Source: Nemertoderma westbladi (taxonomy: Eukaryota > Animalia > Xenacoelomorpha). Taken from it: a DNA stretch of 38,342 nt. The notes under the pieces are model-generated. The model saw nothing but the letters and a program-made list of their open reading frames with translations. It ran no database searches and was not told the DNA's origin. The stretch lies in contig JAUCBJ010007199.1 in the NCBI GenBank assembly GCA_032718475.1, positions 1 to 38,342 on the forward strand. The letters are read 5' to 3'. The translations under genes and the position numbers were made by a program. Below are positions 7,284-38,342 of the stretch, one piece after another. How positions within the stretch are numbered: position 1 is the first letter of the stretch; each line of letters starts with the position of its first letter.

Positions 7284-7606
7284 TGATCGGCATGCTGCAT
7301 TGCAGCTGCATTTTTAAGAATGCTGTGCCGGCTTGTCGACAAAATTGCGCCGCCAGAACTCCCTATCACCCATGACATTTGCTAGATCATCCGCATCTTC
7401 AAGGCCAGTGTCCTTTAAGATGCGTCTCAAGAAAGTCATGGGCTGTCCACCATGCGTATTCACTCCATGAGGCTGCCAAAGTACAAGATTATGCACTGGC
7501 TGGTCCTCACGGCGAAAGCAATGTCCTGCAAAGCGGAGGCGATTTTGTTCTAGTGTCAAGCTTGGGGGTAGCAATGAGACACCTCCAATGTTATATAGTG
7601 TCTGGT
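7254..7606 (-). mobile_element. RTE family 1 copy, 3' half with (TAG)n tail (split by the LTR element)
   Basis: Reverse complement of about 2005-2337; (CTA)n at 7254-7283; continues at 15379. Confidence 0.9.
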
Positions 7607-8064: not shown

Positions 8065-8349
8065 GGGTATGTTGTTGCTACCCCTCCTTGGTGCAATCGC
8101 GAGCTATGTTGCACCAAGGTATCTGACGTCTCCGTTCGAGACAATTGTGGACTCCTTTTCACACAATTTTTAAAAACTCCCACTCTGAACTCACTCTAAC
8201 CTCATTCTACTCTATCTCTTATGGACCCTTCTGTCCCTTACTCTCTCTCTCTCTTACTGCTCGCTCCCCATACTTGAATTGCACTCCTCTCACTTCCTCA
8301 CGCGCCAACACCTCCTCTCAGTACTTCCCTCGTACTTCTCTCATACTCC

Positions 8350-9040: not shown

Positions 9041-10035
9041 TAGCCTGCTACTACTCTTGCGGTATGTCTATATACCACACTCCCTAATCTCTAACTTCTA
9101 ACTCTCCTCTTACTTTTACTAACTTCTACTAACTTTCTTACTTCTTACTAACTTCTACTAACTTTCTAACTACTACTTACTATCTAACTATCTACTACTA
9201 TTACTTTCTAACTTTCTACTTATTTTATTATAAATTTATTTTCCTATTAATGTATTTTTTTTATATTTATGTGTGAGAAGGGCGTCTCGCCCTCATTCCC
9301 ACCCCTCTCAGTCCAACATATTGGACGACTAAACTCTAAGGGATTCCTTGATCTTCCATCGATTCTTCCAGAAGGCACTCTCCCACTGCCCCCCTGTAGG
9401 TCCTCTTATCCTTCGCCACACTCTCCTTGCCAATTCCAACTCTCTAGGAATTGATTCTCCCTCCTCCACCACCCTAAAATCGGGTCTTTCGGTCGCCTTC
9501 TTGATTTCCTCATGGTCCCCTGGCAACAAAATGCCACCCATATGTTGTCGTCACCTGGCGGTAGAATGAAAAGAAATCAAAAGAATAGATAAAACAGAAT
9601 GGATAATAGTAATCCTATCCCTTTCCACCCTGTCTTCTTATTTGACCTCCCCCTTTTCGGTATGCCTCTCAACCGGACCGGCGTCTCCTCCGGACACTTC
9701 TCCGGACATCTCGCCGTCCACTCTTCTCCTTCCACATACCGATACTTGCCGGGGACATCTTTGTTCAATCCCATCGTCTCTAAGTCTTCCGCGTCGAATC
9801 CATTCTCCTCCGCCCACTCTCTTGCTGTAGCTTCCCCTCCTAATTCATCTACCGACGGTATTTCTCTGGAACTATCCTCTATCCTTTCACCACGCTCCAC
9901 TATGCGTGGTTCCAGATCCATACCCAACTCCTGGTATCCTTCTCTGGGCCGCTTCTCGTATGGGACTTCCCCATCGCCTGCCTCTGGTTTCTCCTTTACA
10001 TCCTCAATGGTGCCTGATAGCATGCACCCTGATGT

Positions 10036-11397: not shown

Positions 11398-14300
11398 GGT
11401 CTGCCGGATGAATCGGATTTAAATGGCTCAACTGGTGGTAGCTCGATCCTGGTCTTAAGCGCATCAATGAGTGTTGCCATACCCATCGCCTGTGCTTCCA
11501 ATGGGTCCGATGGATGCTGTACAGACTCTCCTGTTGGGTGCGGTTCACCCGTCGGGCCTGTTGATTTCTTCTGTGTCGGATATATCATTGGGGGTAACGG
11601 CCCCCTCCATATCTCCGTGTCGCACGATCTGTTCTGGTCCAGGGGGTTCTGTGTTATTATTCTCGGCTGAGTGTATTGCTGATATTGTAATGGGGGAATG
11701 TCACCCTGTCCCCCCCCCACCCCCCCCCCCCCCACCGGTGTTGCGTTTGGTACTGGGGTTGATGTTCATATATTAGGGCCCACACATCTATCGGCAATAA
11801 CCCCCCCCCCCCCCCTCCCCTGGGTATATGTTATGTCCCTGCATATTATAGTCATACTGGTGTGCAGGTACTGGTATAGGCCTATCCACCTCTTGCCTAC
11901 CTACCGGTATGTATGCCGTGACTTCCGGGTCTAATCCCATTGTCCGCCCTACCCTATCGCCTACACTATTTCTTCCAGCATGGCCTATAGTATGTGCAGT
12001 TAGGCCTACAGTATGTCCTGCAGTCTGCCTGTGTCCTTCCGGACCGAAGTTTAAGAAGTCCTCCCCGCGACTACCGTACTCTCGATCGGCAGCTACATCT
12101 CGTCGGTAAGTTTCTCTTTGATCCCCTCTCCTGTTCTCATCCTCGTATCGGTACATTCTGTACCCTTCTCCTGGTGTGCGGTATATCTTACCAGGCTGCG
12201 TCCCTCCGGTGCGACGGCAATCTCCCGGAGTTCGACCCCACTGACTCTCTAACTCCATCTCTACTACCGACGGTTCGCTATCCGTCCTCGCTCTCCGGTT
12301 GCTCGTAGCAACGCTTCTTCTATTCTCTTCACTTCTTCTCTCTTCAGTGTAGCGATCCCGCTCATGAGACCTTTCTTCGAACTCCTGGTTAAACTCCACT
12401 GTTCTTCTTCTCTCTTCCGACTGACGTCTTCTCGCTCGCCCGCTCCCGGCACTAACATCTCTCTCTCTACCAGGTTGGACGCTCCCGGGGACATTCGCAA
12501 TCCCCCTACTATTCTCCGTCGTCGGGTGCCGCAGTTCACCTAACTCACCCCGCGCATTATCCGCCGACGCTTGTGGGACATTCTCTGCCCCCCCCCCCCT
12601 CTCGCCACTAATCTCCCGTGTTGGGGCGCCCGTAGCCCCCCCCCCCCCCCCCCACTCGCCACTTCTTACTTCACTACCTCTTACTTCGCTTCTACGCCCC
12701 TCTTGTGGGACATTCTCTGCCCCCCCCCCCCTCTCGCACTAATCTCCCGTGGTGGGGCGCCCGTAGCCCCCCCCCCCCCCCCCCACTCGCCACTTCTTAC
12801 TTCACTATGTCCTACTTCGCTTCTACGCCCCTCTCTAGTCGACGCATTGTCTCTACTGCGGCTGGGTCTATTCACCCACGCCTCTCCCTCTACCACTGCG
12901 TGGCCTTGCAGGCTCCTGTCGGGTTGACTCACCCCCGCTCCTCCCTGCCTAACTGAGTGGCCTTGCAGGCTCCCATCGGGGTGGCTCACCCCCGTCTCTC
13001 CCTGCGTACTAACTACGTGGCCTTCCAGACTCTCGCTGGCCGGGCCACCTATGTCTCCTACATTTGTATTAATAGCGCCGTTACCAACAATATTATTATC
13101 TAAATTATTCAAATTATTGAAATTATTTCGTTCGGAGTTCGGATTATTATTTGAATTATTTTGTATATTTAAATTAGAATTAGGATTATTTTGTTCGTTT
13201 GAATTAGAATTATTATTTAGATTATTTTGTGCGTTTGAATTAGGGTTATTATTTTGTATATTTAAATTAGAATTACCGTTACCGGGTAAAAGACTGTTTC
13301 CTGCAATGAAAGTTTGATTAGGGCACTACGGTACTATTAATATTAATTTCTTCTAACGTATTATTATTACCCCCCCCCCCCCCCCCCCCTCCGCCCGCAC
13401 GGTTACACCAGTCCTGGGTCTGTCGTCCAGTGCCTGTAAGTGGGGTATTAACAAACGTCTCCATCACTTCTGGCTCCTCGTAAATACTCACCCGAACCAG
13501 CCTCACTCTCTGATAATCCCAACTGCGCCAGTTCTAACTGGCACTTCTGCTTAGCCTGATATTGCATAAGCCCCCTTAGCCGGGCATGCCTATCGTCCCG
13601 CATACGCTTTCCCACTCTCTCTCTCTCTCTCTCTCTATATCCTCTCGCAAACTTTGGTTCGCTAATTCTATCTCTCTCGCCTCTCGCTCTTTAAGCTCAT
13701 TCGTTTCTCTCTCTACCCTCGCTGCCTCTCTCTCTTCCCGCTCCCTACAGTTTCTCGCCACCCTCTCGGCCCTCTCTCTACACTCTCTCGCTAACTCTCT
13801 CTCTTTCTCTAATAACGCAGTTCCCTCATCCAGCTGCCTCTCTAACTCTTTCTGATCCAGCGCCACCATGTCTAGTTGACACGCCAGATCTATCTCTAAC
13901 ACCCTTCTTGCTTTTGCGGAGGATGTAGCGGACTTATCGGTCGCGACGGACTCCCGTCGCCTCTCTGTCCTACTAACTTTCCCCCGCTTTCTGGGGTTCT
14001 CGCTAACTGACGAGACCGAATCCTCGGGGTTAACCTCGGGTTTGCCCTCGTGCGGATCCGCCCAACCCACTAACTTAATTCCCCTAGCATCCACTAAGTA
14101 AGGCCCTACGTACACTACTTCAGGCTCCATAACCCCGGATCGCCACAGTTCAAACAGTTCGGTGGCGACCCCCCTCGCTCTCTCACTCGCCAGTTCTCCC
14201 TGTCCAAAACGGACTAAGTATCCGGAAATGTTTGTTCGACTCACCTAGCCTTTGTTGTAACTTAGGCTGGTCTACCTTTCCTCCCTCTCTGGCCTCCTTC

Positions 14301-14680
14301 AGTAACTTCTTAGCGGCGTTGTAGGCCCGTCGTAGCCGATCACTCGTCCCGACGTCCTCTTCGCCGACTCCTCCTCCTCTCCTGGTTCGGCGTCGTACCG
14401 GCGGCCCCACCGTCGCCGTTCCGGTGGGCCGTCCGTCGCCCTCAGCCTGTGGCTGGCCGGCGACTTCGGTACTCCGACCGCCGTCGTGCGTCGACTCGTC
14501 TCTCCCTCGTGGTTGACGGCCGCCCTCCGCTTGGGCTACCGGATCGTCCCTCGTCGGCGAATCCGGCGTCGCTGGCCGATACCGTCTCGTCGCGGCCTCA
14601 CGGATCGTTTGGTTGGTATCGTCCGGGGTCCGCGGCGGCGTCCTCTCTCCCTCAGATAATCGGGGCTCTCTGTCGCTCAT
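11394..14680 (-). pseudogene. Fragmented, very long low-complexity/coiled-coil N-terminal gag region of the BEL element
   Basis: Chain of minus-strand ORFs starting 54 nt from the 5' LTR (14680), including an E/R-rich coiled coil (13576-14244). Many frame breaks coincide with poly-C and CT runs, so they may be decay or sequencing indels. Confidence 0.65.
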
Positions 14681-14734
14681 CTTTGTTCTTTCTGTCTCTG
14701 GCAGTCACAGTTTATAGCAGTTGGAATTATTGAC

Positions 14735-15378
14735 TGTGACGGGATCAGAGATCCCGACCGGGTAATTTTAGTACGCGTCACCGTTCTGCTTTGGGATGGT
14801 GCTAACAGCTTGGCCGAGGCCGTTGGAGAAAAACAATAAGAGTTTGGTGTTGTCTCTTGATGTTAGAAAATGATAGCACAATTAATACGGCAGAAATACA
14901 GATATAATAGATACCGGTACGATAGTGCCGATGACGGTCAATAATTGTTACCGGTCTGCACTAAACTGAATAACCAACTGATGTACCAATCCAAGAATCT
15001 GACATAATATATGATTGATACACTAAATATTGCTTCACCTCCTACTCTACCTTGGCCTCCTACCCAATGGATGCTTTCCTGCTCCCTATCACGTGCTTCC
15101 CTCCCCTCTATTGGCTAATATGCTACTTGTCACCTTGGCACTCTCTGGGAGTGTTTCCCCTCTGCTGCTAGCCTCTACTAGCTGTGTTCCCTCCGAGGTG
15201 GTTTGACCTCTAACCTTCCTTTCTATGTGGCTTCGGGGCTTGTGTTGCCCCCCCCCCCCCCCCCAATGTTGGTTATGATACGAGATTAATATTGGTAATC
15301 TCGTATCTCCAACATATTGCTAAAATGCCACTATCCCATTTTCTGGTGGGTAATGAAGTGGAATTGAATCCGCTTACA
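14735..15378 (-). repeat. 5' LTR of BEL/Pao element (644 bp)
   Basis: Minus strand reads TGTAAG...GTCACA. A TATA-like TATATTA at 15011 lies 32 nt upstream of an Inr-like TCAGTT (A at 14979). Confidence 0.9.
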
Positions 15379-15778
15379 CTGGTTGGAGATGTGTGCATTG
15401 TACTTGACACAATGAACCCGGCGTAGCATTCTTGTGAATGTGCCATCCAGAGATTTGGTGTCCTCAGCAGTTAGAGCCCAGCATGGACTCCCATAGAGGA
15501 GTACTGGAACTACTGCTGCTCAAATAATCGGACCTTAAGTTTCCGATTAATTCTCGGTGACTTCCAAATCCTGGAAAGCCTATTCAAGGCTGCGGCTGCC
15601 CATGCCTTTCCCTTACGTATTCGAAGGTCCTCACCTAACTTCCGGATCCATGATCCCAGGTAACAGAAGTCGTCCACATGCTCAAGCATACCATCCTTTG
15701 AGCTTATGCTTATCCGATCAGAGACTTGCTGAGGACTTTCAAAGTTATCTGTCAAAATTTTGGTCTTTCTGGAGTTAA
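15379..15778 (-). mobile_element. RTE family 1 copy, 5' half
   Basis: Joins 7254-7606 exactly once one CTGGT is removed; encodes NSRKTKIL...FCYLGSW. Confidence 0.9.
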
Positions 15779-16287
15779 AAAACACAATCAGTTGAGATAT
15801 AAAAAATAATTTAAAAAGAGTCAACATGAAATAATGTAAATAATTGATGGCCCTACAAGATTTATTCACCATATTATTCTGCTCTGAATAGGAACGTTAT
15901 TGATTAGGCCGATCTATATTACATTATTTTGTAATGTAATCTAGATATCACTAGAAAGTCATTTATTTGTAGATTCCGAACTTGAAAATCGTTTCAAATT
16001 TCACCTAAAATTGCCACAGATATTCCGGTTAATGGGCATTTTTTAACGGGTTGCTGTAGCTAAATAATATTAAAATTGAAAAATCTGGCCAGGTACCGGT
16101 AGCTGCAGTAGATGAAGTGAAAATCTGAATAGAAAATTTGACTTAACAAAACAAAATATTTATATTTATATATTGTATATTGTATATTGAATCTTGTTTC
16201 TTCTATTTTTGGGTGAATTTGGACTTTCCTGTAATTGAATAATAATTAACGTATAAATTTTGTAAATTTTATGATTATTAGCTTAAC

Positions 16288-18693
16288 ATGCAAAGCGACC
16301 CCCCACGCTCACTTAGGCCTACAACTACAAGCCTGCCGATAATCTTGGGCACAGTGAAGAAAGAGGATGATATCATTCTTGACGAATTAGATAAAAATGA
16401 AGCAAATCATCTCCCCATGGTTGACAGCCTGACACTAGTATATAAAAGATTAATCCGCCCGCTTGAGAAAAAATATCATTACAAACAATTCCATTGTACA
16501 TCACTTAGCTTTACGCCAAAACCGATGATTCTAATGGTGGGACAATTTTCTAATGGGAAGACGACCTTTTTAGAGCACCTCTTGGGATGCCATATCCCAT
16601 TCTCTTACATTGCACCACAGCCGAGCACAGACAGGTTCCAGGTGGTGGAATGGGGCCAGAATGAGAGCGACATACCCGGGAACACATTGACTGCCGACAA
16701 AAACCGCCAATTTGAAGGTTTGAAAGAATTCGGGCAAAATTTCCTTGATCATTTGCATTGTACTGAGATGAATAATCCGGTGTTGAAGTATATCACATTG
16801 ATAGACACGCCCGGAATCTTTGACGGCAGCTATAATACCGATTACAACTTCAACCGCGTTCTAACATGGTTCGCTGACCGGGTCGTCAGGATTATACTTC
16901 TCCTTGATGTGAACAAACACGACATCTCCGAAGAATTCAAAGGTGCTATCGAGGCGCTGCTCACAAACAGAACAAAAATCCGTATTGTCTTGAACAAATC
17001 GCATTTGCTATCCCATGAGGAACTCATGAGAGTTTATGGTGCGTTTATGTGGTCATTAAAGAAAGTGTGGATGATTCATGAGGTGCCAAGGATCTACATC
17101 GGCTCATTCTGGGCTAAAGGACTCTCCTCGGATAGAAGCAGGAACGTTTTCATCAAGAAAGAACACGCTGAATTATTAAACGACATTCGTACTTTGCCCA
17201 GAGAAGCAGCGCAACGAAATATTGATTCTCTTATTAAACGATTTAATTCTGTCATAATCCATGGTTACATTATTGGCTACTTGAAAGACGAGATGCCATT
17301 AACGCGAACTCTCCAAAAGGAAACCACACAGAACCTCATGAAAAACCTACATAAGGTTTTCAACACACTCGGGAAAAAATTCAACAGACCACAAGCAGAC
17401 TTCCCGGACATTTCAGAAATGCGGCAAAAACTGAAGGCCTACCCTAACTTCAATGAATTTCACGGTTATAACGAATCGATATCGTTATTTCCCAACAAAA
17501 TGTCGGAAGTTTTTGCAAAACTGATTTTGATGAACGATAGAATTGGGCAACTACAAGGGGAAATCATGGTACCAGGCTCGGTGTTTGATGAATCACACGA
17601 ACGGATACACGGTGCTATCGGAAGAGATGAGTCGTGGTCTGAAGGTGTCGGGAACAGAGAGTGGATCGTGGACAAGTATATGTTCATCTATAGACCATTG
17701 TTCAAAACTATGGGTCCCATCGATAGAAGTGGACGTGGCTCGGCTACTCACATCCAAGCAATAATAAACAAGTCCGATCTTCAGGATGATGACATTTGCA
17801 AAGTTAGAAATTTGGTGAACATAAAGAAACGATGGAATCTCAATCTACAAGAGTTCGGATTGGCTATGTATTTGGTACAGAATAAAAAGATGAAGGAGGG
17901 GTCGTCAATACCCGATGAATTACCAGAGCATTTAAAACCACCACGACTTCGCAGACGGAGTGGAAGTTTATCAGGTGATGATTCCGGAAAATTAACCCCA
18001 CCAAAGATGCAACTGATGATGCAACGAAGCACTTGGGATACAACATTAGGTATGAATGTCGTAAGTGAATCAAGTTTCAGTGGTTCACCCATTTTAGAAT
18101 CAATGGATTCCGAATTTATGGCTGAAGAAACTTCCGATATTATAATAAATAACAATGCCCCCATTATCGATCCATCAACACAAACACCCCTGCCGCCCAC
18201 AGAACCAGTCAGAATGATGGGGGGCAGAAGTCTACAAGAAGGGACATCTCCAACATCGATGCATAGGAATAGACGACATACCATGAGTGCTACAAGACGA
18301 GATAATGCCACCACCGACCTTCCCCGCTACCCTCCACCACACCAACACCTACATGACACCATTGACACCGCTCACACCCGCCGTCCACTTCCGCCACGGC
18401 CCGTCCAGCAAGACCCGCCAGAACAGCTACCTACCGACGACCCTGTCTGCCGTCCCAGAACGACATCCACCCGACACACCAGATCGAAGAGGGACACCCC
18501 CTCGACTTCATCAGAAGATGTTCCACCTCGTACATCGGGGTTGTTTAGACGAGAAACTGTTGCATCATTTAAAGATGTCAAACAGAGGGAATTAACACAC
18601 CGCCAAATTGACTTTCGCAAAAAACGTCAAGCGCCTCCACCCCCGCTCAGTACTCAAGACCCGCCTCAACCCTCAACGTCCGAGGATGATTGA
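16288..18693 (+). CDS. EHD: EH-domain-containing dynamin-like ATPase (EHD/RME-1/Past1 family), divergent, single coding exon, with long C-terminal extension
   Basis: KPMILMVGQFSNGKTTF (P-loop), APQPSTD, IPGNTL, IDTPGI, DISEEF, RIVLNK, LMRVYGAFMWSL, RIYIGSFW, DFPD, EW.V and P.ELP.HL.PP align with EHD1-4 over about 550 aa. Confidence 0.92.
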   Translation: MQSDPPRSLRPTTTSLPIILGTVKKEDDIILDELDKNEANHLPMVDSLTLVYKRLIRPLEKKYHYKQFHCTSLSFTPKPMILMVGQFSNGKTTFLEHLLGCHIPFSYIAPQPSTDRFQVVEWGQNESDIPGNTLTADKNRQFEGLKEFGQNFLDHLHCTEMNNPVLKYITLIDTPGIFDGSYNTDYNFNRVLTWFADRVVRIILLLDVNKHDISEEFKGAIEALLTNRTKIRIVLNKSHLLSHEELMRVYGAFMWSLKKVWMIHEVPRIYIGSFWAKGLSSDRSRNVFIKKEHAELLNDIRTLPREAAQRNIDSLIKRFNSVIIHGYIIGYLKDEMPLTRTLQKETTQNLMKNLHKVFNTLGKKFNRPQADFPDISEMRQKLKAYPNFNEFHGYNESISLFPNKMSEVFAKLILMNDRIGQLQGEIMVPGSVFDESHERIHGAIGRDESWSEGVGNREWIVDKYMFIYRPLFKTMGPIDRSGRGSATHIQAIINKSDLQDDDICKVRNLVNIKKRWNLNLQEFGLAMYLVQNKKMKEGSSIPDELPEHLKPPRLRRRSGSLSGDDSGKLTPPKMQLMMQRSTWDTTLGMNVVSESSFSGSPILESMDSEFMAEETSDIIINNNAPIIDPSTQTPLPPTEPVRMMGGRSLQEGTSPTSMHRNRRHTMSATRRDNATTDLPRYPPPHQHLHDTIDTAHTRRPLPPRPVQQDPPEQLPTDDPVCRPRTTSTRHTRSKRDTPSTSSEDVPPRTSGLFRRETVASFKDVKQRELTHRQIDFRKKRQAPPPPLSTQDPPQPSTSEDD

Positions 18694-24519: not shown

Positions 24520-25330
24520 ATAAACCATGTCCTGGAATACAGTGTCGTAATTCAGTGACACCCCCCCCCCCCCCTCCCCCAAATTTTTCTAAAAATCTTA
24601 ATGGGATTGCATGAAATTTGAAACAGATAGTTTCACCTACCGGGTGAGCCAGAATTTTTATTTTGCTTTCAATCTTCAGCTACAAGCGTTTGAAAAAGTG
24701 TCTCCGTCGATATTACACCAGTTACACCGCAGTTATTCTTCAACCTTATAGTGATTTGTTGTTACTGATAGAACGCTGGCCATGCAAGGATTCCAAATAT
24801 ATAAAAATATTTGAATTTCGTTGAAAAATAACTGAGATATGGGCGTTCGAAAGTTGCATGTATTTGCTTCCGCTGCAGGCCATTTGTTCTATTTAATAAA
24901 TTTACCATGTTCTAGAACAGTTTGTTTATCTCATAAGTAGCTGGTCAATATTGCAATGCCTATAATAATAATACGATTACATGGATATTCAAACTCACAC
25001 ATAAACAAAATATTCTATAACATTGTGTACTTATTAAATAGAATAAATGGCCTACACCGGAAGCAAATACATGCAACATTCGAATGCCCCATTCCCAACG
25101 AAATGCAAATATTTTTCCATTTTTGGAATCCTTGCACGGTCAGCTTTCTATCAGTACCAACAAATCACTATACGGTTGAAGAATAACTGCGGTGTAACTG
25201 GCGCAATACCGACGGAGACACTTTTCAAACGCTTATAGCTAAAGATTGAAAGCGAAAATGAAAATTCTGACTCACCCAGTAAGTAGTCGGGAGGTGAGAC
25301 TATCTCTGTTTCAAATTTCATGCAATCTCA
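24520..25330. mobile_element. Long-TIR DNA element (same family as 3108-3647) in TRAPPC9 intron 1
   Basis: About 24600-24890 and 25040-25330 are inverted copies (e.g. CCGCAGTTATTCTTCAACC / GGTTGAAGAATAACTGCGG). Confidence 0.7.
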
Positions 25331-25360
25331 TTACTACTTTATTTTAATTTTTTTTTCTAG

Positions 25361-25857: not shown

Positions 25858-26372
25858 GTTATTTAGTTTATTGGGGCGCGGGGGGGGGGGGGGGGGGGGG
25901 GGTGTTAACTGTACAGTTTGCATATTTTGATGCTTCAGCTGTCTGTCTTAATATGCCGTAACAACGGGCTAGTTAAATACCGTTGGCTTAACCATATTGA
26001 CGCGTACTTACGGTTCGATGGAGATTACAACTGATTACTCTTAATAATATAACTGTAACCTGTTCTATTGACATTCGTTTATTAATTTTTATTGTCCGTT
26101 TAAATCCTTTTTTTGTCCTTTTTTTTATTTTTTATGTCCTCCAAAAATCTAATGTTAGGTTCCATGCTACCGGTTTCTCTACTGCTGTTCTCTCAGGCTA
26201 TCAGTACCGGTATTAGTATATATAGCACTATTTTGCTGTATTGTATGTACAGATGTAGGTATAAAGCAGGCATTTCTGTATTTTAGTACCGGTACCGGCA
26301 CCGGTACTGCTGTAGGCCTATTGTGTAGCCTACCATTTAAATACGGTACTGGTAGGCCTACCGGCTGACCGG

Positions 26373-26843
26373 TTGTTTTGGTTAGAAAATCCCGCCTCTG
26401 TAACCTGCCCCTTTCCCTCAATTAATTAAGTGATCGTTTATTGTTTTGGTTAGGAAATCCCGCCTCTGTAACCTGCTCCTTTCTCTCAATTGGTAATGTT
26501 ATCGTTTATTGTTTTGGTTAGAAAATCCCGTCTCTGTAACCTGCTCCTTTCCCTGATTTGGTAAAGTGACTGTTTATTGTTTTGGTTAGAAAATCCCGCA
26601 TCTGTAACCTGCTCCTTTCTCTCAATTGGTAATGTTATCGTTTATTGTTTTGGTTAGAAAATCCTGTCTCTGTAACCTGCTCCTTTCCCTCAATTAGTTA
26701 AATGATCGTTTATTGTTTTGGTTAGAAAATCCCGCCTCTGTAACCTGCTCCTTTACCTGATTTGGCAAAGTGGCTGTTTATTGTTTTGGTTAGAAAATCC
26801 GGCCTTAACCTGCTCCTTTCCATCAATTGGTAATTGTTTTTGG
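26373..26843. repeat. 68-bp tandem repeat, ~7 units
   Basis: TTGTTTTGGTTAG recurs at 26373, 26441, 26509, 26577, 26645, 26713 and 26781. Confidence 0.92.
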
Positions 26844-27266
26844 CTATAAAATGAGTGTTTTGCAACGTCATGTGGTAATCGATTATCGACAACAACCACA
26901 AACTATTAAATTTAGAGTCTTTTACCACAGGCGCATATGGAAATCTATCTCATAGTCTATAAATCATGGAATCATGGAATGTTTTGGCACAGGCATAGTG
27001 AAACCAACTGTCCGACAGTCCAGAATTCAACAAATTTTGAATGTTTTGGCATAGGCATGTTGAAATCAACTGTCTGACAGTCCAGAAATCAGTTTGACAG
27101 TTCTGACAGTTTGAAGAAATACATACATAAAAAGTCATTAAAAGGACAATAAAAGTCATTAAAAGAACAACAAAAGTCATTATGCACAATTCGTAAAAAA
27201 AGGAGGACAAAAAAGTCAAATAAAATGACATAAAAAATCACTGCCTTATTTCAATTTATTCCGCAG

Positions 27267-28449: not shown

Positions 28450-29071
28450 TGTGATAGCAATGTGATTAGTTTTATAGCAGAGTCAAGCTGTTTTTTTCGG
28501 CGCGTTGTTGTGGGGTAATAGCTGTACTCAGATGATTATTATGTTTTGTTTCGCAACGGAAGGAACAATAGAGTGAAATTATAAAGGGAGAACGATATAT
28601 ACGGTATAGTAAAGTGTGCCGTACCTGACTAACTGTTGGGTATCAATACCACAAGTGCATGTTCCAATCACGTTAATTGTTGTTCCCCGTGTACGCTGTA
28701 CGGATAGATGACAGATTGGGTGCTCCTTTTACGTGTTTAAACAACTCATATAAAAGACAGGCCGTCAACTTGCTTTGGGTTCGCTGCTGTGCCTCATGAT
28801 GTGGTTGTGTAGGTGTGTACCTGTGCGTACAGCCTTGCCGAGTTCGTTCCCTTCTTTGGCCGGCCCGTCCTTGTGTTGTTTAAAGCGTTCAAACAAGTCT
28901 TGATGATGTGTTCAAAATACCCCACCCTCCCCCCCCCCCACCCCACAAGAGGACAAGTGAATAAATAAAGAACGTAATGATATCCGGGACGGTGCGTCGA
29001 GCAGATCGACAGGAGTTACCGTGTCTATCTGAGCTGATGGTACCAAACATGTGAGAGGTACATCGATAACA
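28450..29071 (+). repeat. Possible LTR of a third, unrelated element
   Basis: TGTGAT...ATAACA ends, TATAAAA at about 28749 and AATAAA at about 28960. No second copy or TSD in the window. Confidence 0.3.
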
Positions 29072-29214
29072 TGACATGACTCGGAGTTCAAGTTCACCCT
29101 TGAGTTGAAAATTGAGATGGAGCAACAGACCGGTTGTCTGTGCTGTTGGGCATTTGCTCTTCAAGTCGTTTTGTTTGGGATACGAATAAGTCACCCACCT
29201 ATGATCTAAAGGCC

Positions 29215-30407
29215 TGTTCGCGCTTTTAGACCTTTGGCAGTTTAACCCGCCAAATTAGGATGTCTTCTAGATAATAAATCACTTTTAGCCTATGACAAGT
29301 ATTTAATTCACTACACTAGTCGAAACCAATCTGTGCGCGATCATTCACCCGCTGGATATACCCGGGAGATTGGGTTCGACGGCTTAATCTTATTGCTATG
29401 TAAGCTTAATGTATTATTCGACTGACAGTATTATATAATCTCTGACAATATTATTCACCTTCGGGAATATTAACAGTTCCTTTAGGACGTGGCGCTCTAT
29501 CTATATAAACAGAGTTATGACTTAAACTACTCACAACGATATGGCTTAGTTATAATTCACATATATGGCGCATTCTTTAGGAAATGCTTCGTTATCAGAC
29601 TCACTCATACACAATGCTGCACAATACTGCACACTGATCTGCCGATCTTCACTGATTTTAGTTATATATAAAAGGAACACGGACTGACTCATGTAGGGTC
29701 TATCAAATAACATTAGATTCACTTCAAACCACTTTAACATAAGTCACAATCGTTATATGTAACCTTTCTCTCTTACCTTCGGTATATCAAGAATATTGGG
29801 TTTCGGGGTTATTTATCGTTATTCCAAATATAATAATTCATCAACCATATTATGAAGAACTGACAGTAAATAGCAGTATAACAATATAAAAGTATGCAAG
29901 AAAGACCAAACATCAGTTTAGTTTGGATTGGATTGTTATGCACAGTGATTCAGTGTGATAACGGATATATGTCCTTATAATTAAGCCTACTAGTGTTAGA
30001 CTAAAACAGAAAAGCACAAAATATTTCCAAGCCGTTCTCTCCTGGCTCAGGAAGAAAGACCAACAACACTGAAAACTGATGTAAGAATAACCTTATTTAC
30101 AAAAGCTTCCACCCACCACAGAGAAAGAGCATACAGATAGGAAAATTCAGTTCAGTAGATCTGTGATAGGTCGAAATCAAAATCAACTCAAATCCTATTG
30201 GCAGATACAGAAAGCAGGGCTGTGGGGCAACTTTCCCAAGCTGGTTGGACAATCAAACGTAGCCCAGATCCCTTCGCACAGCAAATCAGCCAATCAGCCG
30301 GTAGCTTGCACTATTCGAGTTATAGATCCCTTTTTAGAGTATTCCAGCGCCTGGGGGGAACTGGTTAGCAAGGCAAACGAATCAGTTATCCCACAAAAGC
30401 TTTTACA
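29215..30407 (-). repeat. LTR A (1193 bp), 3' LTR
   Basis: Same termini (TGTTCGCGC ... CAAAAGCTTTTACA) as the TSD-flanked solo LTR at 34406-35608; flanks AGGCC/CCGCT are not a TSD; preceded on the minus strand by a purine-rich tract. Confidence 0.85.
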
Positions 30408-30416
30408 CCGCTCCCA
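30408..30416 (-). other. Polypurine-tract-like sequence
   Basis: Minus strand TGGGAGCGG immediately precedes the TGTAAAAG LTR start. Confidence 0.55.
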
Positions 30417-30485
30417 GAAAATGGGATTTAAGTCTATAAAATATACAAAATCACAATTTCTAATATACATAAATACTCTAAACAG

Positions 30486-33400
30486 TTAGTCTTTCTTGCG
30501 CGGACGGCGTTTACGCAGTTTTTTAAAGCTAGCAAGAGTCCTTTTCTCTTTGGGGCGAGCCACTTTACGAGGAGGGCTGTAGCTCCTAGGCGAAGGGTGC
30601 AATATAATTGCATCAGAAGGTGCAGGGTTACGATCGGTATACCCGCCGGTCGAAGTACCTGGTTGATTAATATCAACCTCAGTGGAGCGAGGTCTAACGG
30701 CCTTTAGAGCGCGTCTCAGGACAGCAGCTCCTACGGGTCCTTGACGGGTCGTCTGGACACTAGCGGTGGGTGGACCGTGAGTGGTGAGGAACTTTCTCGG
30801 TTTAATGGTTCTCTCCAGCTCGCGTTCTCGGGTTCGATATTCATATGGTCGCCGAGATATTTCCTGTAGTTCAGGATGCGAGTTCACAAAGATGTCGCCA
30901 TACTCAGGGTCCTGACGGATAAAATTGATCAGGTGATATGTGGTTATATCATTAGGGTTAACGTTTCTAAGGTATTTCCTGACAAACTTGGTGGAAATAC
31001 ACTCACCAACACGCTTCATTAACTCATAACTTGGTACGCGTGTTTTCTGTTCAATCGACGCGAATAGATAAGGATGGAACGCGTAAACTCCCTCGTAAGC
31101 TCGTCCAGGGTAATAGCGATGTCGGGATTCGCAATGTAAATCGGCGTTCGCTTCCCAAGCTCGGATGTATCGCAGGGTGATCATCTCGTCTACGCTCTCT
31201 AAATCGCGATTAAAGGGACAATTGTAACTTTCATGTCCTTTAAGTTGACAGTAGTGACATTGAGTCATAAATTGTGGGCAGACGGCAAATATATGAGAGT
31301 TATTAAGCCGGCAATAAGCACAATATATTTCCATCATCGGTTGTTCGAGGAAATAGGAACAAGGTACGCTCGAGTCTAGAGGAGTGAAGTGGTCTCTCGA
31401 TGCGCATAATCGACAAAGTTTTCGAGAAACGTAGTTGGCGTGTCGATAATCGTACGCTGTGAGACGCTGTGGACCTTGATACCACTCTATGACATAATCA
31501 TTGTCACTGCTCCGGGAAGCTGTAGGTTGAATCGCTTCTGATTCCAAGCATACTGGTTCATCCTCCAGCTGTATAGACGAAGTGGGTGCGTCGGTTTCCG
31601 TAAGTGGACCCACTGTCTGTATTTCCACGACAGAATAACCTGTAGATATTCGGGGTCTTTGTATAACGGATGAATGTAGGTTCTGTATACAAACGTCTTG
31701 AAAAACGGCAAATCCAGCGCTACTCAGTTTCTCCGCAGCTGAGTCTCTCAGACTGAGTTTGGTCAGCGCGCGGTCCTTGAACTGACTATCGACGTTACGG
31801 AACGGAGTCAGAAAGCGCCGGAAACATTCGAAACGTATGAACTTATTGTGTTCGTCTAACTTGGCGAGTTTAGTTCCAAGTATTAAGGGATGAGCGCGTA
31901 TGGTACGACTGCACACATCGGCTAGCCAACCGGCAAGTGCTGCGTTTTCAAAGATCGTGTATATAGCTAAGGAAGGACGAAGTGGAACACTCATAAAGCT
32001 ATATACGGCACCAGGCGCAGTTAATGGTCCATCAAAATATAAACGAGAGTAATGATCTCCATATACTTGCTGGTAATTGGTAGGATTTCCAACTTTGAAA
32101 TTCCATCCATATTCTTGAAAGGCAAGATGTCCGATGGATGTCCGTTGTACCTTAGTAATGTCGCTGGGTGTATGGGCATACATAGTGCGAAAGAAACCTC
32201 GCTCTTCGGCCCAAGGAGCAATCAGCTGAGTATCAACGAAAGGGTATGGAATGTTTTCCATATTCCGGAAGTCGTTTTGGAGATCTCCATAAACAGCTGA
32301 GCCGATTTTTAGGATTCTTTCGTTAAACAACATTTCGAGCACGGGTTGGGGTAACATTGATCCGTCGATACCCATGGCCGGTTTGCGCTCGGTGTCAGTG
32401 ACGTAACGCTGCGCGAGCTCGAATTGTCCATGTCGAAGTTTCTTTTGTGTCTCTGTAAGGGTTTCAAAAGAATAATCGATCACGTCGGAACACGCTCGAG
32501 TGAATACGTGGGTAGAACCAGCGAGTCCTCGTATATGTATCATTCGCGTAGTTCCTAGTTCTCCCACCGGAACGCTACCTTCGTTGTCATAAGTAACAAC
32601 GCCATACATCTCGATAACGTTAAGAGTCTCGTTCCATTCTTTAGTGGCGTTTTCGAGAGTCATTCCCACTGGATGCCACAAAGTAGCGCATTCGCTAGCA
32701 TTGGGTAAATCTCTATACTTTAAGCATTGTGTAGTATAGGTTTCCACATCTCCATATCGTTTTATTCTTTCTTCCTCGAATAACACGTCAAGATTCCAGT
32801 GTACCAATCGAGTTTTAATGAATCCATCAAGATTGTACGGAGGTAATATTTCTTTCTCTATTCTGGAAATATTATACGGTTTTCGAAATGAGTTTAGTTT
32901 AACTAGCTGATCTAGATGTTTTTGTAGTTGTTCGAGTTCGACGAGGTCGAGAGGATTAATCAATGGTAGAAACTTCAGACTATGCGTAGGATCTTCTGGT
33001 TTTACCATGTAATATTGCTTTAAATTGACGTAATAAGGATGATCCTTAATTCCATAAAATGAGTCCGGCAAAGGTCTAGCGCGTATGTTAACATCGTGCA
33101 CCATGCGACGGACAAGATCCGCTCTATTGTCCGGAGGCTCAACAAGTACGCCATCGACACGAGCAGCCTCGACGGGTGGACGTTGTAGCATGGGAGCGTC
33201 AGCAACGAGCTCTTGAGATCTGAGATCGGTGTTAACTGGTTGAGGCTGTACCGTAGCAAAGAGCTTGTCTTTAAAATGAGGAACCATAGAGGGGTGGAGA
33301 ATCGTTTTGGAATAGAGATCCGTCACGAGAATTTGAGCTTCTGGTTGGGCTAAAGCTGCTTCTTCCCTCTCAGTCAGCTCTATATGTCTCTCCTCGAGCT

Positions 33401-33626
33401 GATTTTCCTCCGCTTGTTGTTGCAAGCGCTCGTCCAGGAATTCCTGTAAAGAGTAGGTTCGTCCACGTTCGATGTCCTCCTCTAGATTTTGTATTTCTCT
33501 ATCGAACTGGGGTAAAGCTAGTTCTTTCACTGCTTGGACTTGTTGTTGCAATTTACGTTTCTCCAAGCAATCGTAAGTTCCCTTTCCGATTTTCTGCCGA
33601 ATAGCGTCCAATGCATTTCGTATCAC
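30486..33626 (-). CDS. 1046-aa retroelement accessory protein: coiled coil, DEDDy 3'-5' exonuclease domain, three CCHC-type Zn knuckles, basic tail
   Basis: ExoI VVTYDNEG, LPQPVLEMLFNERILKIGSAVYGDL (ExoII), FVDTQ, TSIGHLA and PL....IYTIFE (ExoIII) occur in the order of RNase D/WRN/EXD domains. CHYCQLKGHESYNC is a canonical CX2CX4HX4C. The C-terminus is KKLRKRRPRKKD. Confidence 0.78.
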   Translation of the reverse strand: MIRNALDAIRQKIGKGTYDCLEKRKLQQQVQAVKELALPQFDREIQNLEEDIERGRTYSLQEFLDERLQQQAEENQLEERHIELTEREEAALAQPEAQILVTDLYSKTILHPSMVPHFKDKLFATVQPQPVNTDLRSQELVADAPMLQRPPVEAARVDGVLVEPPDNRADLVRRMVHDVNIRARPLPDSFYGIKDHPYYVNLKQYYMVKPEDPTHSLKFLPLINPLDLVELEQLQKHLDQLVKLNSFRKPYNISRIEKEILPPYNLDGFIKTRLVHWNLDVLFEEERIKRYGDVETYTTQCLKYRDLPNASECATLWHPVGMTLENATKEWNETLNVIEMYGVVTYDNEGSVPVGELGTTRMIHIRGLAGSTHVFTRACSDVIDYSFETLTETQKKLRHGQFELAQRYVTDTERKPAMGIDGSMLPQPVLEMLFNERILKIGSAVYGDLQNDFRNMENIPYPFVDTQLIAPWAEERGFFRTMYAHTPSDITKVQRTSIGHLAFQEYGWNFKVGNPTNYQQVYGDHYSRLYFDGPLTAPGAVYSFMSVPLRPSLAIYTIFENAALAGWLADVCSRTIRAHPLILGTKLAKLDEHNKFIRFECFRRFLTPFRNVDSQFKDRALTKLSLRDSAAEKLSSAGFAVFQDVCIQNLHSSVIQRPRISTGYSVVEIQTVGPLTETDAPTSSIQLEDEPVCLESEAIQPTASRSSDNDYVIEWYQGPQRLTAYDYRHANYVSRKLCRLCASRDHFTPLDSSVPCSYFLEQPMMEIYCAYCRLNNSHIFAVCPQFMTQCHYCQLKGHESYNCPFNRDLESVDEMITLRYIRAWEANADLHCESRHRYYPGRAYEGVYAFHPYLFASIEQKTRVPSYELMKRVGECISTKFVRKYLRNVNPNDITTYHLINFIRQDPEYGDIFVNSHPELQEISRRPYEYRTRERELERTIKPRKFLTTHGPPTASVQTTRQGPVGAAVLRRALKAVRPRSTEVDINQPGTSTGGYTDRNPAPSDAIILHPSPRSYSPPRKVARPKEKRTLASFKKLRKRRPRKKD

Positions 33627-33697
33627 GCTCTCTTCGACTTCTGTTACAGGTTGGATAGGAGGGAGGCCAGGACGGTTGTAGGGGTTAAACGGTGATA

Positions 33698-34405
33698 TTA
33701 CATTAGATGACCGCGTCCTAGTCCAGCGAGGTAAGGTTGGCGAATATCTAACGAACCCACTACCGGAGTGCCCCCAATCAACTGTTCAGGTAACACTAGA
33801 TCTTTGAACAGTGAGTACAGTTCGGGAGGATCCGTAATACTATTAGGATCTAGAGTTTGAGGTATCACTTGGGAATGGGGAGGTCTGACCGAGTATTCCG
33901 GAACTCTGATCATGGGTTTATTCAATGATCGCTTAAGGCGCGCGACTGTAGGTGATACGTCGAAAAGGTTACGCTCGAAACTCCCATAAGTATATCGTGT
34001 AAAACTGTGTTTAGCGCAACGTCTCCGCGGATGCTTATGCCTTTCGATTTGCTGGTTAGGTCTAGGGCATTCGTCACAGTAATACCAAAGACGCACGTCT
34101 TGAAGGGGAAACGCGGGTGATCGCTCTCCAGTTTTACAATATTCCTCCATCTGTTCGAAGCTATCTGGAACGACAGGGAGTGGTCGATCGGCGGTAAGAT
34201 ACATCATCGTAAAATAGAGCCGTTTGAGTTCCGTCATAGGATCTGGATGTATACCTTGAGGATATCGAGTTTCGAGGTTTTGTTGACTAGCAACATTGAG
34301 ATAGGTCTCTCTTAGGAATTCTAGATATTCGTTGAAGTCGCTACGTTTATCAGGTTCTTCAACGTCTTCTCTTTCGAGTTTATTTCGAATAGAGTTCTCG
34401 TGTTC
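33698..34405 (-). pseudogene. Middle fragment of the same large ORF
   Basis: Open frame EHENSIRNKLERE...MTELKRL...GRGHLM; in frame with 35952-35614 once the solo LTR is removed. Confidence 0.8.
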
Positions 34406-35608
34406 TGTTCGCGCTTTCAGACCTTTGGCAGTTTAACCCACCAAATTAAGATGTCTTCTAGATATTAAATCGGTTTTTAGTCTATGACAAGTATTTGATT
34501 CACTACACTAGTCGAAACCAATCTGTGCGCGATCATTCACCCGCTGGATATTCCCGGGAGATTGGGTTCGACGGTTTAATTTTATTGCTATGTAAGCCTA
34601 ATGTATTATTCGACTGACAGTATTATATAATCTCTGACAATATTATTCACCTTCGGGAATATTAACAGTTCCTTTAGGACGTGGCGCTTTATCTATATAA
34701 ACAGAGTTATGACTTAAACTACTCACAACGATATGGCTCAATTATAATTCACATATATGGCGCATTCTTTAGGAATTGCTTCTTTAACAGACTCGCTCAT
34801 ACACAATGCTGCACAATACTGCACACTAATCTGCCAATCTTCACTGATTTTAGTCACATATAAAAGGAACACAGACTGACTCATGTAGGGTCTATCAAAT
34901 AACATTAGATTCACTTCAAACCACTTTAACATAAGTCACAATCGTTATTGGTAACCTTTCTCTCTTACCTTCGGTATATCAAGAATATTGGGTTTCGGGG
35001 TTATTTATCGTTATTCCAAATATAATAATTCATCAACCATATTATGAAGAACTGACAGTAAATAGCAGTATAAAACAACAATGAAAACACTGATTGTTAT
35101 GAGTTTGCAATGTTTCAGCAGTCAGTATGTATGATCAGTTAGCAGTAGTCGTTAGTTAAAGGATATATGTCCTTATAATTAAACCTACTAGTGTAAGACT
35201 AAAAACTGAAACACGGAGGTGCCAAAAGCCGGTTCTTAGGCTCTGGGCAAAAACATCACACTGAACTACTGAGTTTCTGTATATACCTCCAACACAGAGA
35301 CAACAAACGCTCTGATTGGTCAACCTGAACAACGAGAGAACAAAGAAACAAAGAAACGTCGACGTGGCAATATCAGCTGCTAGCCGTCGTCATGGTAGCG
35401 ACGCTGTTTTCAAGAGTATCGAGCTTTTACGTCACGGAATTACGGATTATGTCCTCTAAAGTACAAATACAGAAGAAATAGCTTTTATGTCCGCTAAAAC
35501 ACCAGTACAGCAAGGACACGGCCTTTTTATGCCTGTTAAACCAACTACAGAGTATTTTACGGGAAAAATAAGGAAAAGTAACCGGACAATTCAGCAAAAG
35601 CTTTTACA
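34406..35608 (-). mobile_element. Solo LTR B (1203 bp), same family as LTR A
   Basis: TG...CA ends, 5-bp TSD TGTTC (34401-34405, 35609-35613); splits SRIEH|ENSIRN, which is contiguous in the paralogue at about 38240. Confidence 0.92.
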
Positions 35609-35952
35609 TGTTCTATTCTCGATTTGTCGTTTCGACTCCGCTGGGTATGATATTTAAATAAAACCATTTCCCTTTCGGTATCGACATCGTCGGTGTCGTG
35701 TAAATCAATAGGATGACCAGTAGTCAAGAAGTCCATATACGTACCATTACGATGCGTATAGCGAGCCGTGAACTTTCTATAGTCCAATTCACGCGTAAGT
35801 TGCTCCTGGGACATTGGCGGTTCGATATAACGACCATCGTCCTCCGTAGTAGTTGGATCAGCGTCGCCGCGTATCAAGCTATCGACAAACGCTTGTAAAG
35901 GTAGAATATATCTCTCCCTGATACCAAGATCATCTTCTATTAATTCAGTCAT
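35609..35952 (-). pseudogene. N-terminal fragment of the large ORF
   Basis: MTELIEDD...DLHDTDDVDTEREMVLFKYHTQRSRNDKSRIEH, homologous to 38342-38245. Confidence 0.8.
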
Positions 35953-36781
35953 ATCTGCTATACGAGTTCACCAATATTATAATGAGTTTATATATTTATT
36001 AGGCGAGCGGGCGTCGCTGCCTACTTCTCCCTTGCCCCCGGACAGTATGAGATTCTCAGCGCCGATGTACCGCTGTCGCTATACTTTCGCCAACGACGTA
36101 GCCGTACAACGACAACGATAACCGGCACAAGTCACTCAACTGTCCGTCCCAAAGGCTTAGATGTACTTCAGGTTTTCCTTGGAGAGTTAGGTTACTTTTA
36201 CGATTGCGACTAGCTACTGTAAACACACTTTAGCAGTAACATTCACCTATAAACTCACAAATACCACACAACTGGTCACAACTACGCACATTCGGGCCAT
36301 TTGTCCGTTAGTCAATGCCTTCCAGAATGTCACTGTATTATTATGTATCCTTGGATACTAGCAGTGTGCTATTTATTCCCTATGCTATTCAATGGGACAA
36401 GCTTTCTATTGTTCTTTTAACTTAATTCCAATTCTAGCGTGGTTGTTGCTATGGTGACATTATGCAAAGCTAGCGGTAGAATTAGGGTAATTCCAATGCA
36501 TACAGATCTGGGATGTTATTTAATAGTATTCTTTAATAGTCAATGTTCTGTTTTATACATGACTTTATGAATTTTATCGGCTATTGACTATGTTTGGAAG
36601 ACTTTCGCACACTCATATGCATAATAAGATAAATCTCCGCTCCCTTGATCTATTAATTAATGGAATTTTGGGAATGTTATAAATTGCGTAAAAATGGCAA
36701 TTTATTAAATTCATTAAAAGGCATGAATTTAAATTTATTCCCTGAAATTTTATTATTTGATAATTAAATGGACATATTTTG

Positions 36782-37058
36782 ATTCTAGAACATGTCTGGG
36801 GACACAAGATCCTTAATTCTATGACAATTGTCCTTTTAAGAATATCGGTAAATGCTACGATATCTTAATTGACTAGAATTGTTGAAGGATCTGAATTTTA
36901 CAGATTTTGATTTATTAGATTTGCAAATATTAAATAATTAATATTTGAGATGGGCACCGATTTATTCCAGAACTTGTCTGGGGACGTTAACCACTGATTC
37001 TAGAATTTGTCTTTCAAGTATATCGGTGGGTGCCGCGATATCTTAATCGACTAGAATT
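36782..37058. repeat. Degenerate direct repeat (~95-bp core, ~180-bp period, 2 copies)
   Basis: AGAAC.TGTCTGGGGAC...TATCGGT...TGC..CGATATCTTAAT.GACTAGAATT at about 36782-36880 and 36964-37058. Confidence 0.7.
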
Positions 37059-37235
37059 ACAGATGGTCAAAGGGTTTAACAGATTTATTTTGCGTTATAC
37101 GCTACTGTTAAAGGGACATCACGCTACTATATGTATTATTTAATATACGGTATGAGAGCAATATCGCACGAAGCAATGTCAGTGTGAAGAGGCAAGTCGT
37201 TTCCAAGGTCTACCCAGAGCTTGGTATCTGCCGTT

Positions 37236-38342
37236 TCGATATGCTTCTCCTCGAGCTGATTTTCCTCCGCTTGTCATGGAATACGTTCGTCCAAAACTCT
37301 CGCAGAGAATAGGGTTTTCTAAGCTTGATATCTTCTTTGAGATTCGAGGTTTCCCAATCGAACTGAGAGAAGGCCAATTTGTTTATCGATTGGACTTACT
37401 GTTGTAACTTACGTTTATCTGAACAAACGCAGGTTTCTTTTTGATCTTTATAGAATAGCGTTTACCTCGTTTCGTACAACGCTCTCCTTCACCTTGATGA
37501 AGGGTTGTATCGCGTTAAACGGGACGACCATACGGTTGGATAGTGATATTAGGTGTCTGCGTCATAATCCAGCTAGGTAAGATGGGCGGCTAGCTAGAAA
37601 TCACTGTCGGAGTGTTACCGATTAATTGTTAGGGTAGCACTAGATCTTGAACAGTGAATACTGTCCGCGAGGATCCGCGACACCACCAGGATCGCAGGTC
37701 TGAGGTCCAACTAAGGAATGAGGAGGTTTGACCGAGTATTCCGGGACTCTGATCGTAGGTTTACTCTAGGATCGTTAGAGCCGAGTGAGCATAGGTGATA
37801 CGTCAAACAAGTTTCGCTCGAAACTCCAGTAAATATAACGAACACAACTGTGTTTAACACAACGTTTCCGTGGATGTTTATGTCTTTCCGTTTATTGGCT
37901 GGGTCTAGGGCATTTACCGTAATAATACCCAAAAACGTACGTCTTGTAGGGGAAACGCGAGTGATCTTTCTCCAGCTTACAATATTCCTCCATCCGTTCG
38001 AAGCTATTCGGTACAACAGGTAGCGGTCGATCGGCGGTAAGATACATCATAGGGGAATCGAGCCGTTTGAGTTCTACCATGCGGTCATGATGTATACCTT
38101 GAGGATATCGAGTTTCTAGATTTTGTTGACTGGCAATATTGAGATATGTTTCTATCAGGAATTCCAGATAATCGTTGAAGTCGCTGCGTTTATCCGGCTC
38201 CTCAACGTCTTCTCTTTCGAGTCTGTTTCGAATAGAATTCTCGTGTTCCATTCTTGGTTTATCGTTCCGCCTCCGCTGGGTAGGATATTTCAATCGTACC
38301 ATTTCCCTTTTGGTGTCGACATTGTCCGTATCGTGTAAATCG
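37236..38342 (-). pseudogene. Decayed paralogue of the N-terminal part of the large ORF
   Basis: Aligns with 35700-35609 plus 34405-33380 (…MMYLTADRPLPVVP.SFE.MEEYCK…AEENQLEE.HIE), with stops and frameshifts; diverges before the exonuclease domain. Confidence 0.85.

Follow-up and report, generated by a model that had tools for sequence, protein, structure and literature searches.

On the reverse strand of contig JAUCBJ010007199.1 from Nemertoderma westbladi (assembly GCA_032718475.1), a stretch of 38,342 nt that was analysed as a whole and is called the window throughout, lies a broken copy of an accessory gene of an amplified long terminal repeat (LTR) retrotransposon. The gene encodes a protein in which a predicted DEDDy-type 3'-5' exonuclease domain is followed by three zinc knuckles, and the element that carries it likely belongs to BEL/Pao. 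Our preferred reading, to which we assign a probability of roughly 0.4, is that nuclease and knuckles together shorten or degrade host small RNAs that target the element. The element family is very highly repeated and mobile, and the architecture of exonuclease plus triple knuckle recurs in other genomes.

The initial annotation of the window described an intact open reading frame (ORF) of 1046 codons at 30486-33626, ending about 80 nt before a polypurine tract (PPT)-like sequence and a 1.2-kb LTR, without transmembrane (TM) segment or reverse transcriptase (RT) and integrase motifs. The downstream arrangement was confirmed and the ORF indeed translates stop-free into 1046 amino acids, but it is not intact. 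Its reading begins at an internal GTG, the first ATG of the frame lies at 33287, and the frame is open from 33785, the longest frame being 30486-33785 (1099 codons). Coding sequence extends further upstream through the frame 33698-34405 and, past a solo LTR, to an ATG at 35952. By coordinate arithmetic the whole accessory gene has about 1,420 codons, of which the 1046-codon ORF is the 3' three-quarters, and in this copy it is broken by the solo LTR and by a frame change. The latter is bracketed by synonymous variants from other copies, at 33773 in the upstream and at 33657 in the downstream frame. Evidence for the intact site comes from an older copy (38342-37236, 75% DNA identity) that matches both sides of the solo LTR and whose frame crosses the site without an LTR. 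The stretch from nuclease to knuckles (aa 320-870) is unbroken in this copy, and the accessory ORF contains no introns.

The highest Kyte-Doolittle 19-mer value is 1.19 for the 1046-aa piece, and 1.19, 1.07 and 0.73 for the three pieces of the gene, in line with the annotated lack of a TM segment; lack of a TM anchor and of a Pfam match speaks against the ORF being an env gene. Searches of PDB sequences with the 244-aa piece and with aa 560-735 gave nothing useful, and an HRDC domain was matched neither in Pfam nor, for aa 560-735, in PDB. The N-terminal ~670 residues of the full gene thus appear unexplained by PDB searches. A Cys/His cluster at 34085-34005(-) in the second ORF piece may bind zinc and has no Pfam or PDB match.

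Downstream of the ORF, the 3' LTR (30407-29215, 1193 bp, TG...CA) begins 78 nt past the stop, and the tract before it is 8 nt long and purine-rich with one pyrimidine, a weak PPT. The 3' LTR is not a solo LTR because it has no flanking duplication. The solo LTR inside the gene has the same ends and is 96% alike over the 3' 669 bp but only ~50% on the U3 side, which suggests U3 exchange between subfamilies. Within the shared 3' 670 bp, one block of 100 columns is fully identical between the two copies. The two cannot be a 5'/3' pair, the upstream one having a target duplication and splitting the ORF; because it is a solo insertion in the ORF, the two copies are unusable for dating the insertion.

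The stretch is wholly or partly present in six sequencing runs from four studies. In run X1, 55,160 contigs lie on 28500-38342, and the ORF body reaches a median summed depth of 140,670 versus a depth of 21-24 for long flank contigs; summed depth is not a copy number, and therefore we conclude only that the family is very highly repeated. The repeat starts at the LTR end near 29214 and takes in the non-coding region 35953-37225. At 37225, 41 X1 contigs continue into one other sequence that is missing from the window (agreement 0.99), so that this copy lacks the typical element's 5' part. The window holds neither a 5' LTR nor gag or pol of the element, and no RT or integrase of it was found by tblastn with a BEL/Pao polyprotein or by motif scan: the sole tblastn match in the window is a protease that belongs to a separate element at 10 kb, and the motif scan has its single RT-like match in the protease ORF of that same element. 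A joint from 30626 to 37223, present in four of four runs, marks a deletion derivative in which the ORF's 5' part and tail are retained while nuclease and knuckles are gone. This derivative is a non-autonomous subfamily, and it has spread.

The nuclease domain was recognised by profile and by structure. HMMER against 1.84 billion representatives (E ≤ 0.001) returned three proteins, of which P0002 matched over the nuclease region (E 2e-7) and the other two, P0003 and P0004, over the knuckles; all are unnamed, and each has a nuclease-like N-terminal part and a knuckle module. Alignment A6, comprising seven nuclease-domain members with 14-23% identity to the window protein and including no known nuclease, was compared as a profile to 177,635 PDB sequences, and the top four of six matches were Egalitarian (E 5e-4), EXD2 (2.7e-3), again Egalitarian, and RNase D (0.08). 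AlphaFold with A6 produced a model (mean predicted local distance difference test (pLDDT) 42.7, predicted template modelling score 0.39) that shows the three-strand start of the DnaQ fold, and all 10 Foldseek matches to it at E ≤ 1e-3 were EXD2 or WRN. In VIA-align (48,161 chains) the first 31 rows were all DEDD-type nucleases or proofreading domains, with EXD2 best (Z-score 8.1, root-mean-square deviation 5.8, 113 aligned), further values being 7.3 for Rrp6, 6.9 for Nibbler, 6.8 for Klenow, 6.6 for EXD1 and 5.7 for the RNase D of Trypanosoma brucei (TbRND). Rrp6, second by structure, is not among the PDB matches of the A6 sequence profile. Both the window domain and P0003 led to PF01612 clusters in ESM Atlas (0.92), which we take as leads only. 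The DEDDy fold that had been proposed for the domain is thus borne out by agreement of Foldseek, profile and VIA-align beyond chance: the domain almost certainly adopts an RNase H-like DnaQ/DEDDy fold of the EXD2/WRN/Egalitarian/RNase D type, with EXD2 (Z 8.1) and Rrp6 (Z 7.3) tied as to its DEDDy subfamily.

Narrower searches returned less. The single-sequence AlphaFold model had a pLDDT of 32.3, phmmer with the window domain alone against PDB gave chance matches only, and a three-homologue profile without P0002 missed the window nuclease (E 0.11). Word-index protein searches, which cover near lengths only, found nothing for region 180-930 of P0001 and for alignment A1, and for P0002 only itself. 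No loci related to P0001 were found in viral, metagenome or genome contigs, none matching alignments A3, A2 and A7 in viral contigs, and none matching A3 in genome contigs.

In metagenome contigs, alignment A3 led to seven homologous loci (L001-L007), confirmed from 79 pattern matches; the same accession prefix is found on five of the seven contigs, which are hence not independent. The window protein itself matches L001, L002 and L003 by tblastn via the knuckles. L004 contains an unbroken BEL/Pao gag-pol polyprotein of 2076 aa (DUF1759, RVT_1, Peptidase_A17 with E 7e-38, DUF5641), followed directly and in the same frame by an ORF of 1010 codons that combines a degenerate nuclease with the knuckle module; a single stop at L004:6275-6280 separates the two, and read-through from pol into the nuclease-knuckle ORF is possible. 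The env position that had been claimed for the window ORF, where no gag-pol lies upstream, is therefore seen in this homologue. L003 has a BEL/Pao gag-protease ORF without RT and then a nuclease-knuckle ORF of 617 codons in another frame. In L005, L006 and L007 a purine tract and then TGT lie ~160-210 nt past the stop. The nuclease-knuckle ORF of L001 (L001:8616-11679) is flanked by decayed direct repeats and shows no gag-pol match; this locus could be either an LTR-ORF-LTR element or a subgenomic RNA that was copied; at L002 the upstream DNA is too short to show any gag-pol. From these homologues we consider it likely that the copy in the window, too, belongs to a BEL/Pao element. Its LTRs of 1193 and 1203 bp with TG...CA ends are within the BEL/Pao range of 0.2-1.2 kb, which is not family-specific, and its 8-nt purine tract compares with ~10 nt in BEL/Pao, a weak and likewise unspecific likeness. 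A primer-binding site for tRNA-Arg or tRNA-Gly would be expected in a BEL/Pao element past its 5' LTR, a part of the element that lies outside the window.

The three Cys/His knuckles at aa 738, 769 and 790 lie in a module with 12 invariant columns among 9 sequences. A homologue-only profile, with the window left out, scores the window module at 28.5 bits, whereas none of 200 shuffles exceeds 2.6. With the module profile, the knuckles in the Gag of L003 and L004 reach 8.2 and 0.4 bits versus 28.5-87.6 for family members, and these low scores rule out that the module is a copy of a BEL/Pao Gag array. Pfam on the C-terminal part gave weak knuckle matches only (E 0.043). Judged by these profile scores, the module is a signature of the family; some homologues without catalytic residues still retain the knuckles. 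By analogy, it likely binds single-stranded RNA. One locus, L002:124-2022 (P0004), combines a degenerate nuclease with two tandem copies of the module.

The motifs listed in the initial annotation, as well as the zinc knuckles, were found in their places: D347/E349, KIG..GD with D448, VDTQ at 464, SIGHLA at 497 and Y556-x3-E560. The ExoI residues D347/E349 lie on predicted strand 1, and their profile column is the D-C-E of EXD2 and Egalitarian; the ExoII residue D448 is aligned by the profile with the Asp of the same two proteins. For ExoIII, the annotated Glu as last acidic residue agrees with BLAST to the closest homologue, which pairs Y556-x3-E560-N with Y-x3-E-N of P0002, but not with MAFFT, which pairs Y542-x3-S546 with the Y-x3-D of P0003, L001 and L003. 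With the last predicted helix beginning near residue 551, Y556/E560 come to lie close to its start. Asp is absent from the fourth position in either register, and the fourth catalytic residue is probably E560 rather than S546. A small ExoIII deletion private to this copy was rejected, no indel with a share of at least 25% being listed in 31900-32620. P0002 and P0003 keep four acidic residues.

Among contigs mapped to 31900-32620, 33 of the 40 best-supported variants (out of 135) fall at third codon positions and 32 are synonymous, compared to an expected 28.6% with the same transition/transversion mix (binomial p 2e-11, which is indicative only; rough omega 0.1). None of these 40 hits codons 347, 349, 448, 556 or 560. 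In the upstream frame (33698-34405) 15 of the 18 shown variants are synonymous. Comparison to the older decayed copy gives 69 of 139 differences at third positions, with 43 synonymous and 53 non-synonymous codons and 3 stops in the old copy, although part of this diagonal is out of register and its support for selection is weak. The variant pattern indicates that the nuclease domain is under purifying selection and, together with D347, E349, D448 and E560, makes catalytic activity in the window family probable on balance.

In the mechanism that we favour, a protein would be made from the second ORF, its knuckles would hold RNA and guide its 3' end into a two-metal site, in the manner of TbRND, and its basic tail may carry it to the nucleus. 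The protein would act in trans, because derivatives without the nuclease have spread. Its substrate would be host PIWI-interacting RNA (piRNA) or small interfering RNA, the least supported step, chosen because the closest folds include proteins of the piRNA pathway. Nibbler is a host factor of this pathway. EXD1 is another (PMC5408684). A role in counter-defence would fit because the accessory gene is dispensable in cis. A bolder version, which we put forward with little confidence, is a BEL/Pao lineage in which a small-RNA-degrading exonuclease with a knuckle RNA clamp has replaced env, suppresses piRNA silencing and enables amplification, with a dead RNA adaptor in sister lineages.

Several points weigh against small-RNA degradation by this protein. 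Pfam recognises no family in the whole 1046-aa protein at E 0.1. The AlphaFold model is weak, with no residue above pLDDT 70, and its ExoIII half is poorly modelled (C-terminal half under 50), residues 320-513 being best supported. The ExoIII register is ambiguous between the alignments, and S546 would mean a dead site. The ExoI D-x-E is kept in five of the seven family members and the ExoII Asp in three of the seven; ExoI is gone from the L004 homologue, the sole one with an intact gag-pol next to it, which means that part of the family can do without catalysis. The 40 variants were chosen by support, and variants share ancestry. The element class is visible at two of the seven loci, both BEL/Pao, and the window has no pol for this element. 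With respect to the substrate, a transposon-borne copy of a Nibbler/EXD1-type factor could equally feed silencing, and Rodriguez et al. report DEDDy ORFs without a clear link to copy number (PMC5408684).

The alternative that survives best, although still tentative, is an adaptor for the element's own RNA that serves nuclear export, localisation or packaging, the DEDDy fold being an RNA-binding surface as in Egalitarian and catalysis optional. While the window family keeps D347, E349, D448 and probably E560 in a domain under purifying selection, and P0002 and P0003 also retain four acidic residues, it is the knuckles that are the best conserved part, and catalytic residues are lost in at least two of the seven members, L004 among them. 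Selection on the fold cannot tell binding from catalysis. Egalitarian, whose structure was solved bound to RNA localisation signals, tops the profile matches, the basic tail resembles a nuclear localisation signal (NLS), and Cer1 encodes a nuclear RNA-export protein (PMC10309623).

On a separate axis, the carrier could be a Ty3/gypsy element or an LTR element that never carried pol, the gene having moved between retroelement classes. We hold this to be doubtful. The window is without pol, five of the seven homologous loci show no gag-pol, including L001 between its decayed direct repeats, and DEDDy ORFs of rotifers are common to several classes (PMC5408684); yet both loci with upstream retroelement genes are BEL/Pao, and no gypsy pol was found by Pfam on 21 of the 57 ORFs of at least 150 aa or with the BEL polyprotein against all seven loci. 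[quoted passage not shown]

That the nuclease acts in the element's own replication, where it would trim genomic RNA, primer tRNA or cDNA at the 3' end inside the particle, is improbable. Such functions have been suggested for the rotifer DEDDy ORFs (PMC5408684) and for Dada transposases (PMC3706591), the knuckles resemble nucleocapsid fingers, and the L004 ORF, in the pol frame after a single stop, could enter the particle by read-through. However, BEL/Pao elements generally replicate without such a gene (PMC8742986), the L003 ORF is in another frame, and dead versions exist. Proofreading for RT is very improbable and the weakest of the three functions, because the nuclease is a separate ORF that some spreading relatives have lost or carry in a catalytically dead form: the structural matches do include proofreading domains of polymerases (Klenow Z 6.8), but the ORF has knuckles of RNA-binding type, the best matches are EXD2, Egalitarian and Nibbler, and the L004 version is catalytically dead next to an intact RT. 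Finally, although host proteins with exonuclease and CCHC knuckles exist (an ESM Atlas cluster in Euglenozoa; TbRND), a host EXD/Mut-7-like gene lying by chance beside an LTR is refuted by repetition (55,160 X1 contigs on the 9.8-kb region, a summed ORF depth of about 1e5 against 21-24 for flank contigs) and by LTR linkage (purine tract and LTR 78 nt past the stop), the gene having no introns and its homologues sitting in retroelements.

Table 1. Position of the accessory gene, its domains and the surrounding repeats in the window.
Feature	Coordinates	Strand	Remarks
5' ORF piece, ATG at 35952, severed by solo LTR	35609..35952	-	84% DNA match to older copy 38244-38341
Solo LTR, 1203 bp, TG...CA, in ORF	34406..35608	-	5-bp target-site duplication
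Second ORF piece; frame closes at 33698 and overlaps next frame	33698..34405	-	15/18 shown variants synonymous
Third, longest open frame (1099 codons), includes 1046-codon ORF	30486..33785	-	
Predicted DEDDy/DnaQ-type 3'-5' exonuclease domain, ~aa 322-578	31893..32663	-	D347, E349, D448, probably Y556/E560
Three zinc knuckles and conserved helical tail, aa 732-869	31020..31433	-	Family-specific module
Basic C-terminal tail, 8 K/R in 10 residues	30492..30521	-	Putatively NLS-like
Purine-rich tract, PPT-like, weak	30408..30415	-	Directly before 3' LTR
3' LTR, 1193 bp, TG...CA	29215..30407	-	No flanking duplication; near-unique DNA beyond
Non-coding, very high-copy internal region upstream of ORF	35953..37225	-	
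Older decayed copy of ORF 5' part	37236..38342	-	75% DNA identity; type seen in widespread deletion derivative

The window contains further repeats and ORFs (coordinates of the accessory gene region in Table 1). The separate element near 10 kb (7607-15192(-)) is a young LTR element with 458-bp LTRs that are 99.6% identical, frameshifted gag-like ORFs and an aspartic protease (Asp_protease_2) matching BEL/Pao protease regions; without RT or integrase, it is by its sequence likely a non-autonomous BEL/Pao element. An uninterrupted 803-codon EHD-like ORF (Dynamin_N, DUF5600, EH) with a long low-complexity tail at 16282-18693(+) may be a retrocopy, or else a gene carried by a transposon. At 475-1236(+), a galactosyltransferase ORF without interruption (PF01762, E 1e-30) lies among repeats that recur in both orientations at 1682-2337, 7275-7608 and 15379-15782. 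A 68-bp tandem array and two long imperfect palindromes resembling miniature inverted-repeat transposable elements are found at 26305-26848, 6612-7172 and 24599-25333.

DEDDy ORFs in LTR elements have the rotifer precedent to which the initial annotation had pointed: Juno, Vesta and Athena elements carry a DEDDy ORF3 with a DEED tetrad, whose function is without tests (PMC5408684). Terminon elements (PMC6431247) and Dada DNA transposons (PMC3706591) also carry DEDDy domains. BEL/Pao elements are metazoan, and the ICTV profile of Belpaoviridae lists env-like extra genes only (PMC8742986); the word "exonuclease" has no occurrence in the main text of a BEL/Pao study (PMC3118150). We found no exonuclease ORF in BEL/Pao in titles and abstract openings, a coverage that excludes most subscription papers, supplements, Repbase and GyDB, and the gene may be recorded there unnamed. 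The proposal of an undescribed family is therefore plausible, its architecture recurring in other genomes and not being found in print, but it had been made without the tie to BEL/Pao, the breakage and the lost catalytic residues; that the gene is no single-copy host gene was correctly foreseen.

When an LTR retrotransposon carries an extra gene, its position usually earns that gene the label "env-like". Through its homologues, the present family extends the rotifer arrangement, a DEDDy ORF at the env position, to another group, BEL/Pao, with a conserved triple-knuckle module. A gene under strong purifying selection in a massively amplified family, of which catalytically complete and dead forms both occur, is a tractable candidate for asking whether enzymes directed against small-RNA silencing are encoded by animal retrotransposons.

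Like the rotifer ORF3 of Juno, Vesta and Athena, the window gene is a DEDDy exonuclease ORF without TM segment and with a variant tetrad, between the enzyme genes and the 3' LTR. In contrast to the DEED of the rotifer proteins, its tetrad is D-E-D-E or D-E-D-S, the third acidic residue being Asp448. The protein has ~1,420 aa, a conserved triple-knuckle module and homologues tied to BEL/Pao, and whereas copy numbers in the rotifer families are low (an average of 1-2 full copies) the window family is very highly repeated. We do not claim membership in the rotifer ORF3 group, from which the family is set apart on the basis of published description.

[quoted passage not shown] In Belpaoviridae as described, however, the extra gene is env-like and an exonuclease is not mentioned (PMC8742986; PMC3118150, main text), and the present copy shows no gag-pol in the window. 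With the host proteins EXD2, WRN, Egalitarian, Nibbler/Mut-7 and EXD1 the domain shares the predicted fold and the ExoI and ExoII motifs, but identity in structural alignments is 10-17%, the fourth acidic residue, if present, is Glu, the nuclease is fused to knuckles, and the gene is intronless and mobile. Dada (PMC3706591) provides another transposon-borne DEDDy exonuclease, in this case inside a DDE transposase and not in a retroelement.

TbRND is similar in its order of nuclease and zinc fingers and by structure (Z 5.7); it trims small guide RNAs, and its C-terminal zinc-finger domain drives RNA binding and cleavage (PMC7797062). Unlike the window protein, it is a cellular enzyme with four fingers adjoining the nuclease, compared to three knuckles ~150 residues away and a family-specific tail. 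We claim no membership in the TbRND group, but by analogy the window protein may work like such a nuclease-plus-zinc-finger RNase.

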